From Escherichia coli (GTDB lineage Bacteria; Pseudomonadota; Gammaproteobacteria; Enterobacterales; Enterobacteriaceae), in NCBI RefSeq assembly GCF_003334355.1, contig NZ_QOWP01000047.1: a stretch of DNA of 21,171 nt; one strand, given 5' to 3'. Under the pieces are notes generated by a model. That model was given only the letters and a program-made list of their open reading frames with translations. It searched no databases and was not told where the DNA came from. The position numbers and the translations under genes are program-made. Positions 4,109-19,235 of this stretch are shown one piece after another. The stretch's first letter is position 1. Each line of letters starts with the position of its first letter.

Positions 4109-5161
4109 ATGAATTATCAGAACGACGATTTACGCATCAAAGAAATCAAAGAGTTACTTCCTCCTGTCGCATTGCTGGAAAAATTCCCCGCTACTGAAAA
4201 TGCCGCGAATACGGTTGCCCATGCCCGAAAAGCGATCCATAAGATCCTGAAAGGTAATGATGATCGCCTGTTGGTTGTGATTGGCCCATGCTCAATTCAT
4301 GATCCTGTCGCGGCAAAAGAGTATGCCACTCGCTTGCTGGCGCTGCGTGAAGAGCTGAAAGATGAGCTGGAAATCGTAATGCGCGTCTATTTTGAAAAGC
4401 CGCGTACCACGGTGGGCTGGAAAGGGCTGATTAACGATCCGCATATGGATAATAGCTTCCAGATCAACGACGGTCTGCGTATAGCCCGTAAATTGCTGCT
4501 TGATATTAACGACAGCGGTCTGCCAGCGGCAGGTGAGTTTCTCGATATGATCACCCCACAATATCTCGCTGACCTGATGAGCTGGGGCGCAATTGGCGCA
4601 CGTACCACCGAATCGCAGGTGCACCGCGAACTGGCATCAGGGCTTTCTTGTCCGGTCGGCTTCAAAAATGGCACCGACGGTACGATTAAAGTGGCTATCG
4701 ATGCCATTAATGCCGCCGGTGCGCCGCACTGCTTCCTGTCCGTAACGAAATGGGGGCATTCGGCGATTGTGAATACCAGCGGTAACGGCGATTGCCATAT
4801 CATTCTGCGCGGCGGTAAAGAGCCTAACTACAGCGCGAAGCACGTTGCTGAAGTGAAAGAAGGGCTGAACAAAGCAGGCCTGCCAGCACAGGTGATGATC
4901 GATTTCAGCCATGCTAACTCGTCCAAACAATTCAAAAAGCAGATGGATGTTTGTGCTGACGTTTGCCAGCAGATTGCCGGTGGCGAAAAGGCCATTATTG
5001 GCGTGATGGTGGAAAGCCATCTGGTGGAAGGCAATCAGAGCCTCGAGAGCGGGGAGCCGCTGGCCTACGGTAAGAGCATCACCGATGCCTGCATCGGCTG
5101 GGAAGATACCGATGCTCTGTTACGTCAACTGGCGAATGCAGTAAAAGCGCGTCGCGGGTAA
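4109..5161 (+). CDS. aroG: 3-deoxy-D-arabino-heptulosonate-7-phosphate synthase, Phe-sensitive
   Basis: 350 aa ORF recognised as E. coli AroG (MNYQNDDLRIKEIKELLPP...), full length. Confidence 0.96.
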   Translation: MNYQNDDLRIKEIKELLPPVALLEKFPATENAANTVAHARKAIHKILKGNDDRLLVVIGPCSIHDPVAAKEYATRLLALREELKDELEIVMRVYFEKPRTTVGWKGLINDPHMDNSFQINDGLRIARKLLLDINDSGLPAAGEFLDMITPQYLADLMSWGAIGARTTESQVHRELASGLSCPVGFKNGTDGTIKVAIDAINAAGAPHCFLSVTKWGHSAIVNTSGNGDCHIILRGGKEPNYSAKHVAEVKEGLNKAGLPAQVMIDFSHANSSKQFKKQMDVCADVCQQIAGGEKAIIGVMVESHLVEGNQSLESGEPLAYGKSITDACIGWEDTDALLRQLANAVKARRG

Positions 5162-5318: not shown

Positions 5319-6071
5319 TTACTTCGCTTTACCCTGGTTTGCAACCGCCGCTGCTTTCGCTGCGATCTCGTCAGCATTACCCAGATAATAGCGTTTCAGC
5401 GGTTTGAAATTCTCGTCGAACTCATACACCAGCGGCACGCCAGTCGGGATATTAAGCTCAAGAATCTCTTCTTCGCTCATGTTATCAAGATATTTCACCA
5501 GCGCACGTAAAGAGTTACCGTGTGCAGCGATGATCACGCGCTCACCGCTCTTCATACGCGGCAGAATAGTTTCATTCCAGTAAGGGATCACGCGGTCAAT
5601 GGTCAGCGCCAGGCTTTCCGTCAGCGGCAGTTCTTTCTCGCTCAGTTTCGCGTAACGCGGATCGTGACCCGGATAACGCTCATCATCTTTAGTCAGTTCC
5701 GGCGGAGTCACTGCAAAACCACGACGCCACTGTTTCACCTGCTCGTCGCCATACTTTTCAGCAGTTTCCGCTTTGTTCAGACCCTGCAACGCACCGTAGT
5801 GACGTTCGTTCAGTTTCCAGGATTTCTCAACGGGCAGCCATGCCTGATCCAGTTCGTCCAGCACATTCCACAGGGTATGGATAGCGCGTTTCAGCACAGA
5901 AGTGTAAGCAAAGTCAAAGCTGTAACCTTCCTCTTTCAGCAGCTTACCTGCTGCTTTTGCTTCGCTTACGCCTTTCTCAGACAGATCCACGTCGTACCAA
6001 CCGGTGAAACGGTTTTCTTTGTTCCACTGACTTTCGCCATGACGAACCAGAACCAGCTTAGTTACAGCCAT
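5319..6071 (-). CDS. gpmA: 2,3-bisphosphoglycerate-dependent phosphoglycerate mutase
   Basis: Translation recognised as GpmA ([25 protein letters not shown]...), 250 aa. The ORF-track entry (5319..6086) extends 5 codons to an upstream TTG; the ATG at 6071 is preceded by a GAGGAG ribosome-binding site and matches the known N terminus. Confidence 0.94.
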
Positions 6072-6095
6072 ATACTTACTCCTCAAATCATCTTT

Positions 6096-6117
6096 TAATG
6101 ATAATAATTCTCATTAT
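6096..6117. promoter_or_regulatory. Fur-box-like AT-rich hexamer array in the gpmA promoter
   Basis: TAATGATAATAATTCTCATTAT lies about 25-45 bp upstream of the gpmA ATG and resembles the Fur consensus GATAATGATAATCATTATC; gpmA is, as I recall, a reported Fur target. Confidence 0.5.
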
Positions 6118-6247
6118 ATTGCCGCGACGAAGCAACAGCAATGCTTACGCATAACCATAGCGAAAATAGTGGCGCAGTGTAAGGTTGTTGTGAATATTGA
6201 GTTGCAAATATGTCGGTGTTTGCTGGTGATTTGAACAATATGAGATA

Positions 6248-6268
6248 AAGCCCTCATGACGAGGGCTT
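6248..6268 (-). terminator. Probable terminator hairpin downstream of galM (end of the gal operon)
   Basis: Stem AAGCCCTC (6248-6255) / GAGGGCTT (6261-6268), loop ATGAC, immediately after the galM stop at 6273; the downstream U-tract on the minus strand is only moderate. Confidence 0.45.
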
Positions 6269-6272
6269 AACA

Positions 6273-7313
6273 TTACTCAGCAATAAACTGATATTCCGTC
6301 AGGCTGGAATACTCTTCGCCAGGACGCAGGAAGCAGTCCGGTTGCGGCCATTCAGGGTGGTTCGGGCTGTCCGGTAGAAACTCGCTTTCCAGAGCCAGCC
6401 CTTGCCAGTCGGCGTAAGGTTCGGTTCCCCGCGACGGTGTGCCGCCGAGGAAGTTGCCGGAGTAGAATTGCAGAGCCGGAGCGGTGGTGTAGACCTTCAG
6501 CTGCAATTTTTCATCTGCTGACCAGACATGCGCCGCCACTTTCTTGCCATCGCCTTTGGCCTGTAACAAGAATGCGTGATCGTAACCTTTCACTTTGCGC
6601 TGATCGTCGTCGGCAAGAAACTCACTGGCGATGATTTTGGCGCTGCGGAAATCAAAAGACGTTCCGGCGACAGATTTCAGGCCGTCGTGCGGAATGCCGC
6701 CTTCATCAACCGGCAGATATTCGTCCGCCAGAATCTGCAACTTGTGATTGCGCACGTCAGACTGCTCGCCGTCAAGATTGAAATAGACGTGATTAGTCAT
6801 ATTCACCGGGCAAGGTTTATCAACTGTGGCGCGATAAGTAATGGAGATACGGTTATCGTCGGTCAGACGATATTGCACCGTCGCGCCGAGATTACCCGGG
6901 AAGCCCTGATCACCATCATCTGAACTCAGGGCAAACAGCACCTGACGATCGTTCTGGTTCACAATCTGCCAGCGACGTTTGTCGAACCCTTCCGGCCCGC
7001 CGTGCAGCTGGTTAACGCCCTGACTTGGCGAAAGCGTCACGGTTTCACCGTCAAAGGTATAACGGCTATTGGCGATACGGTTGGCATAACGACCAATAGA
7101 GGCCCCCAGAAACGCGGCCTGATCCTGATAGCATTCCGGGCTGGCACAGCCGAGCAGCGCCTCGCGGACGCTGCCATCGGAAAGCGGAATACGGGCGGAA
7201 AGTAAAGTCGCACCCCAGTCCATCAGCGTGACTACCATCCCTGCGTTGTTACGCAAAGTTAACAGTCGGTACGGCTGACCATCGGGTGCCAGTGCGGGAG
7301 TTTCGTTCAGCAC
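6273..7313 (-). CDS. galM: Aldose 1-epimerase (galactose mutarotase)
   Basis: 346 aa ORF recognised as GalM; its start overlaps the galK 3' end by 7 nt. Confidence 0.95.
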
Positions 7314-13565: not shown

Positions 13566-14339
13566 ATGGCTCGTAAATGGTTGAACTTGTTTGCCGGGGC
13601 GGCACTCTCTTTCGCTGTTGCTGGCAATGCACTGGCAGATGAAGGGAAAATCACGGTGTTCGCCGCCGCATCACTGACTAACGCAATGCAGGACATTGCT
13701 ACGCAGTTTAAAAAAGAGAAAGGCGTGGATGTGGTTTCTTCTTTCGCTTCGTCATCTACTCTCGCCCGTCAGATTGAAGCGGGTGCGCCTGCGGATCTGT
13801 TTATTTCTGCCGATCAGAAATGGATGGATTATGCGGTTGATAAAAAAGCGATCGATACAGCTACGCGTCAGACACTGCTCGGCAATAGCCTGGTCGTTGT
13901 AGCACCGAAAGCCAGCGTGCAGAAAGATTTCACCATCGACAGCAAAACCAACTGGACTTCACTGCTGAATGGCGGTCGCCTGGCGGTTGGCGATCCGGAA
14001 CATGTTCCCGCTGGCATTTATGCAAAAGAAGCACTGCAAAAACTGGGCGCATGGGATACGCTCTCTCCGAAACTGGCCCCAGCGGAAGATGTTCGTGGGG
14101 CGCTGGCGCTGGTCGAACGTAACGAAGCGCCTCTGGGCATTGTCTACGGTTCTGACGCAGTTGCCAGCAAAGGGGTAAAAGTGGTTGCCACCTTCCCGGA
14201 AGATTCACATAAAAAAGTGGAATATCCGGTTGCTGTTGTGGAAGGGCATAACAATGCGACAGTGAAAGCATTTTATGATTATCTGAAGGGACCGCAGGCA
14301 GCGGAAATCTTTAAACGTTACGGATTTACAATCAAGTAA
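13566..14339 (+). CDS. modA: Molybdate ABC transporter periplasmic binding protein
   Basis: 257 aa ORF with signal peptide (MARKWLNLFAGAALSFAVAGNALA/DEG); recognised as ModA; AAGGGG ribosome-binding site. Confidence 0.96.
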   Translation: MARKWLNLFAGAALSFAVAGNALADEGKITVFAAASLTNAMQDIATQFKKEKGVDVVSSFASSSTLARQIEAGAPADLFISADQKWMDYAVDKKAIDTATRQTLLGNSLVVVAPKASVQKDFTIDSKTNWTSLLNGGRLAVGDPEHVPAGIYAKEALQKLGAWDTLSPKLAPAEDVRGALALVERNEAPLGIVYGSDAVASKGVKVVATFPEDSHKKVEYPVAVVEGHNNATVKAFYDYLKGPQAAEIFKRYGFTIK

Positions 14340-15028
14340 TGATACTGACCGATCCAGAATGGCAGGCAGTTTTATTAAGCCTGAAAGTTTCTTCCCTGGC
14401 TGTGCTGTTTAGCCTGCCGTTTGGGATCTTTTTTGCCTGGTTACTGGTGCGTTGCACGTTTCCGGGCAAAGCTCTGCTCGACAGCGTACTGCATCTACCG
14501 CTGGTGTTACCGCCCGTGGTCGTCGGTTACTTATTATTAGTTTCGATGGGACGGCGCGGATTTATCGGTGAACGTCTGTATGACTGGTTTGGTATTACCT
14601 TCGCCTTTAGCTGGCGCGGCGCGGTTCTCGCTGCCGCCGTCATGTCGTTTCCGCTGATGGTGCGGGCAATTCGTCTGGCGCTGGAAGGGGTTGATGTCAA
14701 ACTGGAACAGGCCGCAAGAACACTGGGGGCCGGGCGCTGGCGCGTTTTCTTTACTATCACGTTACCGCTGACCTTACCGGGAATTATTGTTGGTACGGTA
14801 CTGGCTTTTGCTCGTTCTCTCGGTGAGTTTGGTGCAACCATCACCTTTGTGTCGAACATTCCTGGTGAAACGCGAACCATTCCTTCTGCCATGTATACCC
14901 TGATCCAGACCCCCGGCGGGGAAAGTGGAGCGGCGAGACTGTGCATTATTTCTATTGCGCTGGCGATGATCTCCCTGTTGATTTCAGAATGGCTGGCCAG
15001 AATCAGCCGTGAACGGGCGGGGCGCTAA
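14339..15028 (+). CDS. modB: Molybdate ABC transporter permease
   Basis: 229 aa ORF; its ATG overlaps the modA stop (TAATG); recognised as ModB (ABC permease with EAA loop region). Confidence 0.96.
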
Positions 15029-15030
15029 TC

Positions 15031-16089
15031 ATGCTGGAACTGAATTTTTCCCAGACGTTGGGCAACCATTGCCTGACTATTAATGAAACGCTGCCCGCCA
15101 ATGGCATCACTGCTATCTTTGGCGTCTCCGGTGCCGGAAAAACTTCGCTGATTAACGCCATCAGTGGACTGACGCGCCCGCAAAAAGGGCGGATTGTCCT
15201 CAATGGGCGGGTACTAAATGATGCCGAAAAAGGTATCTGCCTGACGCCGGAAAAGCGTCGCGTTGGCTATGTTTTTCAGGATGCGCGGCTGTTCCCGCAT
15301 TACAAAGTGCGTGGCAATCTGCGCTACGGCATGTCGAAAAGTATGGTCGATCAGTTCGATAAGCTGGTGGCGCTTTTAGGCATTGAACCGTTGCTTGACC
15401 GTTTACCAGGCAGCCTGTCCGGAGGCGAAAAACAGCGCGTGGCGATTGGTCGGGCTTTGCTGACAGCACCGGAATTGCTGTTGCTGGATGAACCGCTGGC
15501 GTCACTGGATATTCCGCGTAAACGCGAACTGTTGCCTTATCTGCAACGGCTGACACGGGAAATCAACATTCCGATGTTGTATGTCAGCCATTCGCTGGAT
15601 GAGATCCTCCATCTGGCAGACAGAGTGATGGTACTGGAAAACGGTCAGGTGAAAGCCTTTGGCGCGCTGGAGGAAGTGTGGGGCAGTAGCGTGATGAATC
15701 CGTGGCTGCCGAAAGAGCAACAAAGTAGCATTCTGAAAGTGACGGTGCTTGAGCATCATCCGCATTACGCGATGACCGCGCTGGCGCTGGGCGATCAGCA
15801 TTTGTGGGTCAATAAGCTGGACGAACCGCTGCAAGCTGCGCTACGTATCCGCATTCAGGCTTCCGATGTTTCTCTGGTTTTACAACCGCCGCAGCAAACC
15901 AGCATTCGTAACGTATTGCGGGCAAAAGTTGTTAATAGTTATGACGACAACGGCCAGGTGGAAGTGGAACTGGAAGTCGGCGGTAAAACGCTGTGGGCGC
16001 GTATCAGCCCGTGGGCCAGGGATGAACTGGCGATCAAACCAGGCCTGTGGCTGTACGCGCAAATTAAAAGTGTGTCGATAACCGCCTGA
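15031..16089 (+). CDS. modC: Molybdate ABC transporter ATP-binding protein
   Basis: 352 aa ORF with Walker A (GVSGAGKTS), ABC signature (LSGGEKQRV), Walker B (LLLLDEP) and a C-terminal Mop/TOBE-type domain; recognised as ModC. Confidence 0.96.
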
Positions 16090-19052: not shown

Positions 19053-19235
19053 TATTACTCCGGAAAATGGAAGCGACGATTTTGGGTGGCTGGCCGTTAA
19101 AAATTTTAACTGCATTTAGCCAACTTAAATTAATGAAAAAATGTTATTAATCGTTGAGCTAAAGTCATTAGAGATGCTTTGCCCTTAATGTAACCATATC
19201 GCAATAAGTTATGTTTTTAAATTGAGGGCATTATT

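Follow-up and report, generated by a model that had tools for sequence, protein, structure and literature searches.

Fur and the gpmA Gene

The closest described system is the Fur site of the gpmA (pgm) gene of Escherichia coli K-12. Chen et al. (2007) reported a 27.4-bit Fur site at K-12 coordinate 786853, i.e., 35 nt upstream of the gene start; this site is the joint highest-scoring Fur site of the genome, is embedded in a 31-bp cluster with overlapping weaker sites, and is gel-shifted by 150 nM Fur (PMC2189734). According to the account of earlier work given in that paper, the gpmA region had previously been cloned as a fragment able to titrate Fur in vivo (Vassinova and Kozyrev 2000, as cited in PMC2189734). 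In the ChIP-seq data of Hou et al. (2023), Fur gives a peak upstream of gpmA, with a 14.7-fold enrichment, which is present both with and without added iron (PMC10219339). In the same study, the log2 fold change of gpmA between the fur mutant and the wild type was 2.20 (q = 2.7e-82) and 2.02 in the two media, and a 4.6-fold derepression of the gene is given for the E. coli fur mutant (PMC10219339). The site predicted there, TAATGAGAATTATTATCATT (Table S6), has its centre 35 nt before the ATG, at +2 relative to the transcription start site (TSS), and the p value of the gpmA motif (3.4e-10) is the lowest among the Fur-repressed genes (PMC10219339).

As for other organisms, gpmA is 5.6-fold up in a fur mutant of Salmonella Typhimurium (PMC3212961), the amount of the GpmA protein rises about 3-fold in Edwardsiella ictaluri under chelator-imposed iron restriction (PMC4500449), and a gpmA mutant of Salmonella is less fit in the presence of dipyridyl (PMC9308263). 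Fur is not discussed in the TraDIS paper dealing with H2O2 and gpmA, nor in the paper on NOX2 and gpmA in Salmonella.

The Fur operator of gpmA is already known, having been described in 2000 and re-confirmed several times, and its recovery in the present analysis adds no new biology. The link between Fur and gpmA is also recorded in regulatory databases such as RegulonDB/EcoCyc.

The gpmA Locus

The window, i.e., the whole stretch of DNA that was analysed (21,171 nt), is a segment of the E. coli chromosome containing aroG, gpmA, galMKTE, and the mod genes. The other gal genes and the mod genes are located in its outer parts, and tRNAs are found at its left end. Among its genes are the following:

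4109-5161, plus strand: aroG, from the ORF map
5319..6071, minus strand: gpmA coding sequence, 753 nt and 250 aa, with the ATG at 6071..6069 and the stop at 5319; the regulated gene
7313..6273, minus strand: galM, from the ORF map, in which galK and galT are also mapped

In the ORF listing, gpmA starts at a TTG (6086); since the gpmA coding sequence of RefSeq is 753 nt long, the start was taken to be the ATG at 6071 rather than this TTG. The 1 kb around the operator matches all the complete E. coli genomes (5426/5426), with an identity of 95-100%; the RefSeq genes lying beneath this match are gpmA and galM, and the gpmA label is carried by the matches that are 100% identical. K-12 coordinate 786853 corresponds to position 6106 of the window, and the site predicted in Table S6 (TAATGAGAATTATTATCATT) is the same sequence as the operator of the window.

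GpmA is a cofactor-dependent, metal-independent mutase. The protein encoded in the window reaches 467.8 bits against the NCBIfam equivalog NF010713, whose cutoff is 305, and belongs to this family; through this assignment, it is identified as a 2,3-bisphosphoglycerate-dependent phosphoglycerate mutase.

Other elements were observed in the window. At positions 1-280, upstream of a presumed nadA ORF, there are two tRNA genes and a match to RtT RNA (56.7 bits), and this stretch resembles a common spacer element of tRNA operons. Directly after the stop codon of galM, on the minus strand, lies a hairpin (6248-6268) whose 8-bp stem (AAGCCCTC / GAGGGCTT) is perfectly paired and whose loop measures 5 nt, with a T-run behind it; it has the appearance of the gal operon terminator, dividing gal transcription from the gpmA promoter. 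The Rfam search gave no match in or near the gpmA Fur site.

Architecture of the gpmA Promoter

The main TSS of gpmA was determined by Olvera et al. (2009) by 5'RACE and was seen again by pyrosequencing-based TSS mapping (PMC2759082). A table of the same paper names Fur as a regulator of gpmAP1 (PMC2759082). The coordinate of this TSS was transferred to the window from the published promoter sequence (...GGCAATATAATGAGAA; PMC2759082), which is identical to that of the window, and the gpmA promoter was placed on the basis of the published 5'RACE TSS and of conservation. The resulting features, in the order in which they occur along the gene strand, are:

6146, minus strand: reported second, weaker start (gpmAP3-P4; PMC2759082), located 75 nt before the ATG; coordinate computed from ATG 6071
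6136..6141, minus strand: probable -35 hexamer TTGCTG, 17 bp upstream of the -10, assigned from spacing and conservation
6113..6118, minus strand: -10 hexamer TATAAT of gpmAP1, read directly, which is at the same time the first Fur-box hexamer
6096..6116, minus strand: Fur operator core, gene strand TAATGAGAATTATTATCATTA, a 10-1-10 dyad with its centre at 6106
6108, minus strand: TSS of gpmAP1, from 5'RACE (PMC2759082); the base is an A located 37 nt before the ATG
6079..6084, minus strand: Shine-Dalgarno GAGGAG of gpmA, read from the sequence; (A/G)GGAG is kept in all the orthologues

The TATAAT hexamer sits 5-10 nt upstream of the mapped TSS and is kept in all the Enterobacterales orthologues examined, including those devoid of a Fur box. 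The -35 hexamer is conserved across genera in the form ATTGCCG/ATTGCTG, most of the relatives having TTGCCG. The automatic sigma-70 scan detected no promoter on the gpmA strand, since the -35 hexamer TTGCTG fits just 3/6 consensus positions. The gpmAP3-P4 start, which is reported without second-method confirmation in PMC2759082, is located upstream of the Fur box and outside it.

The initial annotation of this DNA had placed a Fur-box-like array over the gpmA promoter, and the overlap is borne out by the 5'RACE data, the TSS at 6108 falling inside the box (PMC2759082). The operator spans roughly -10 to +13 with respect to this TSS, its centre (6106) being at +2/+3, and the box thus covers both the TATAAT hexamer (6118..6113) and the start site itself.

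Sequence Analysis of the Fur Box

Positions 6096-6117 read TAATGATAATAATTCTCATTAT, in exact agreement with the letters quoted in the initial annotation, and, in the orientation of the gene, the array is situated 25-46 nt before the ATG of gpmA; on the gene strand, the region upstream of gpmA reads ...ATTGCTGTTGCTTCGTCGCGGCAATATAATGAGAATTATTATCATTAAAAGATGATTTGAGGAGTAAGTATATG. The resemblance of this array to tandem GATAAT hexamers holds under each of the three formulations of the Fur box that were applied, with matches far beyond chance. At 6100-6118(-), the classical 19-mer consensus GATAATGATAATCATTATC is matched at 16/19 positions, i.e., with three mismatches; this is the sole match in the 21 kb, the number expected by chance per window being 0.03. 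The 7-1-7 motif TGATAATNATTATCA is matched at 13 of its 14 specified positions (6099-6113, one mismatch; 0.01 expected). Three tandem NATWAT hexamers are found at 6101-6117 with one mismatch and at 6095-6111 with two, with a window expectation of 0.12. The same DNA forms an inverted repeat, whose 10-nt arms (6096-6105 and 6107-6116) are 1 nt apart and 90% (9/10) complementary; a dyad symmetry fitting a dimeric repressor is present, in other words, at 6096-6116.

A log-odds matrix was then derived from Table S6 of PMC10219339, of which 18 E. coli Fur sites other than that of gpmA were used. With this matrix, the score of 6096-6116 is 26.9 bits as listed and 28.1 bits when the matrix is symmetrised, and the published value is 27.4 bits (PMC2189734); under the same matrix, scores of 14 to 27 bits are obtained for the training sites, their median being about 22. 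As a null model, 200 first-order Markov simulations of the window were used; the highest maximum across the 200 simulated windows was 18.8 bits, and the mean maximum was about 12-13 bits. In 178 kb of related genomic loci, all the matches of at least 15 bits are gpmA-orthologous sites. The matrix score had been proposed as a check in the initial annotation, together with data on Fur binding or titration, and the latter also agree with a Fur site: they comprise the gel shift and the titration clone (PMC2189734) and the ChIP-seq peak (PMC10219339).

Part of the Fur match comes free with the promoter, since the first Fur hexamer is mostly -10 consensus. TATAAT gives 5/6 matches to the first GATAAT hexamer, and AT-richness is a general property of core promoters. 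The whole match might accordingly be regarded as a by-product of an AT-rich -10 followed by an AT-rich initial transcribed region, with no regulatory role. However, the larger part of the matrix score is contributed by bases of the 21-mer that do not belong to the -10 hexamer, among them the right half-site ATTATCATTA; taken as a whole, the site attains 27-28 bits. Moreover, the promoters of Lonsdalea and Izhakiella are conserved and yet score between -4 and 2 bits, having no box, and the published gel shift, ChIP-seq, and fur-mutant data (PMC2189734, PMC10219339, PMC3212961) are at odds with a site devoid of any function. We consider this explanation very improbable.

It might also be argued that the palindrome is the operator of a different regulator, for instance Zur, or a target of a nucleoid protein such as H-NS or Fis; the DNA is indeed AT-rich and palindromic, and the operators of Fur-family paralogues are alike. 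Nevertheless, all three formulations of the Fur box match, and both a gel shift with Fur and a Fur ChIP-seq peak have been published (PMC2189734, PMC10219339), so that an operator of another regulator has hardly any chance of being the correct explanation.

The scan of the remainder of the 21-kb window with the Fur matrix gave best matches of only 9-11 bits (18230, 19132, 8301, and 19763); these were not counted as sites, since their scores are below the maxima of the random windows. The strongest intergenic match outside gpmA, at 9-11 bits, is 19132-19152, located in the divergent intergenic region between ybhD and ybhH (19116-19235); its score lies below the random-window level and is by itself not significant. 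Both genes are higher in the fur mutant, with log2 fold changes (wild type/fur mutant) of -1.43 for ybhD and -2.17 for ybhH (Table S2, PMC10219339), and both are absent from the ChIP peak tables of PMC10219339. The effect of fur on these two genes could be indirect, or could be due to a weak site. A scan for Zur operators with a Zur-box consensus found no match at <=3 mismatches anywhere in the window, and a Zur operator was rejected as a candidate.

Conservation of the Fur Box

When the 61 bp around the site are considered, about 70% of the E. coli genomes show 1-3 base differences from the window. In the four E. coli variants that were aligned, these changes affect the promoter spacer, the -35 hexamer, and the 5' UTR, and none of them falls in the box; the 32-bp core (6093-6124) is exactly the same in 5416 of the 5426 complete E. 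coli genomes.

A pattern scan with one genome per species sampled 21 gpmA loci. The 21-mer (27.7 bits) is identical in E. albertii, E. coli, Escherichia sp. MOD1-EC7003, and sp. E1V33, as well as in Salmonella enterica subsp. arizonae and diarizonae and in Citrobacter werkmanii; in E. whittamii (28.8 bits) and Citrobacter sp. On2M (26.2 bits), it is altered at the last base only. In the loci of Escherichia, Salmonella, and the two Citrobacter, the 21-mer is thus kept, up to its last base, whereas the DNA farther upstream and the 17-bp spacer vary without constraint; the box is conserved beyond the neighbouring non-coding DNA. A weaker box (16.5 bits) is found in Serratia oryzae. Intestinirhabdus alba has a good box (24.7 bits), with an insertion of ~107 bp between the box and the Shine-Dalgarno.

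Other members of the sample have no Fur box. The five Lonsdalea loci (L010, L011, L014, L015, and L017) score from -4.0 to -2.2 bits, and Izhakiella capsodis (L022) scores 2.2 bits; both genera retain TTGCCG-17-TATAAT and the Shine-Dalgarno, the sequence downstream of the -10 being unrelated. In Citrobacter sp. JGM124 (L025), only a degraded remnant of the box (6.5 bits) is left. Since the promoters of Lonsdalea and Izhakiella are conserved without the box, the box sequence is dispensable for a functional promoter; the strict conservation of the box in Escherichia, Salmonella, and Citrobacter therefore reflects some other selection, which is most simply that for Fur binding. This distribution, as read from the sequences, suggests a lineage-specific gain or loss of the Fur control of gpmA.

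Two further observations concern individual loci. The insertion of I. alba (L019) is GC-rich, and because of it the box lies 144 nt before the ATG and the 5' UTR is longer; it could be a REP-like or another small mobile element. A contig of 2705 bp labelled as an 'uncultured Collinsella sp.' MAG (L016) carries the gpmA start and a Fur box identical to that of E. coli (27.7 bits), and it is almost certainly an enterobacterial contig mis-binned into an actinobacterial MAG.

Response of gpmA to Iron

The Fur dependence of gpmA is solid, the gene being bound by Fur and about 4-fold repressed by it in both media (PMC10219339). The Fur control suggested in the initial annotation is supported (log2 fold change of 2.20; PMC10219339), with one qualification as to its dependence on iron. 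In wild-type NCM3722, gpmA is absent from the list of genes changed between iron added and iron omitted, and the ent, fep, fhu, cir, and suf genes do respond to the omission (Table S1, PMC10219339). Since gpmA is missing from this list, and yet is bound and repressed in both media, its release likely needs a harsher starvation. The medium without supplied iron is only mildly limiting, and the iron response of gpmA probably requires harder starvation than the mere omission of iron. The simplest reading is that a very strong operator is occupied under mild limitation and is freed only in harsher starvation.

A different reading of these data is that the site is mainly a Fur 'sink', or a constitutive 4-fold damper of gpmA, which is occupied under physiological iron limitation and does not act as an iron switch. 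This would be consistent with the presence of the ChIP peak with and without iron and with the near-equal log2 fold changes (2.20 vs 2.02), as well as with the fact that gpmA is not in the wild-type list for the two media, whereas ent, fep, fhu, cir, and suf respond (PMC10219339); the top matrix score of the site in the genome (PMC2189734) points in the same direction. On the other hand, the iron-omitted medium is just mildly limiting, and three sets of data speak against this reading: the GpmA protein of Edwardsiella goes up about 3-fold under a chelator (PMC4500449), the Salmonella gpmA mutant loses fitness with dipyridyl (PMC9308263), and the original isolation of the region relied on Fur titration in vivo, as cited in PMC2189734. 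It is simpler to assume that operators form a graded hierarchy, and a sink or a constitutive damper appears unlikely. In the preferred reading, that of a strong operator released late, the gpmA operator would be among the last ones vacated as iron falls.

The expression data also include other genes of the window. In the wild type, modA, modB, and modC are 1.3-1.7 log2 lower with iron than without (Table S1, PMC10219339). The genes concerned (modABC, window 13566-16089) serve molybdate uptake, and their response to iron has no connection with the gpmA site.

Proposed Mechanism and Significance

There is very little doubt that, in the E. coli gpmA promoter, the array at 6096-6117 serves as the Fur operator. 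The quality of the match in the window, the position of the box relative to the mapped TSS, the fact that Fur binds it both in vitro and in vivo, and the Fur-dependent expression of the gene all establish this assignment, the last three being drawn from the literature. A genuine operator could, in this case, be recognised from the sequence alone, as the initial annotation had done.

According to the mechanism that we propose, iron-loaded Fur dimers bind the dyad TAATGAGAAT-T-ATTATCATTA, centred at 6106. Since the operator covers both the -10 and the TSS, bound Fur should block RNA polymerase, either by excluding the sigma-70 holoenzyme from the promoter or by preventing the formation of the open complex. 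Under severe iron starvation, when Fur is without Fe2+, or upon deletion of fur, the promoter would be freed and the gpmA mRNA would rise about 4- to 5-fold. Since neither a DNase footprint nor an in vitro transcription experiment on the gpmA promoter was found in the literature examined, steric occlusion is a mechanism that we infer. As for transcripts initiated at gpmAP3-P4 (6146), Fur would be bound downstream of the start and would act as a putative roadblock rather than by occlusion.

The site couples iron status to lower glycolysis, the inactivation of Fur leading to several-fold more of the metal-independent phosphoglycerate mutase. Two physiological reasons might be envisaged. One possibility is that the rise of GpmA, which fits a shift away from iron-rich respiration, would allow more flux through lower glycolysis when the cell scales down the TCA cycle and its iron-rich respiration. 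The other is a demand linked to siderophore synthesis, in which extra PEP would feed the chorismate needed for enterobactin.

What is mildly new here is limited to a lineage-restricted box lying over a conserved promoter and to a hint that the gpmA operator holds a top rank in the hierarchy of Fur occupancy. These two elements might be combined in a single, tentative picture, which we regard as possible though somewhat more doubtful than secure: the operator would stand at the high-affinity extreme of the Fur occupancy hierarchy, with a 'last-resort' release of gpmA at near-total iron depletion, and it would represent a lineage-specific gain over an older, conserved promoter. Among the loci compared, the box occurs in Escherichia, Salmonella, most Citrobacter, and Intestinirhabdus, with a weaker form in Serratia oryzae, the box being absent in Lonsdalea, Izhakiella, and one 'Citrobacter' isolate. 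If such a lineage-specific gain were true, gpmA would offer a clear-cut natural example of how a central glycolytic enzyme is rewired into a regulon. The extreme of the hierarchy and the lineage-specific gain are each a modest extension of what is known of Fur.

Comparison with Known Systems

The Fur site of K-12 gpmA represents the same locus with the same sequence, the published promoter and site being identical to those of the window, and no difference exists within the operator. The classical operators, i.e., those of fhuA, fepA/fes, entC, cirA, fecI, and the sRNA gene ryhB, share with gpmA the three GATAAT-like hexamers or the 7-1-7 arrangement with a dyad; like that of gpmA, the classical iron-uptake operators are located over the -10/TSS and are Fur-repressed. 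However, the gene regulated here encodes a metal-independent enzyme of central glycolysis and is not involved in iron acquisition. Its fold change is modest (4-5 fold, compared to 20-60 fold for ent, fep, and cir), and gpmA remained repressed upon simple iron omission, whereas the classical iron-uptake genes did not.

A link between iron status and carbon or energy metabolism, similar to that of gpmA, is also provided by pfkA in Salmonella, by mdh, mqo, and sdh in E. coli, and by the iron-sparing response mediated by RyhB. In the case of gpmA, the control is direct and is exerted through a consensus-grade operator, whereas the other central-metabolism genes have weak or indirect sites, their ChIP enrichment being about 1.1-2.2 and their motif p values ranging, where listed, from 1e-4 to 1e-6 (PMC10219339).
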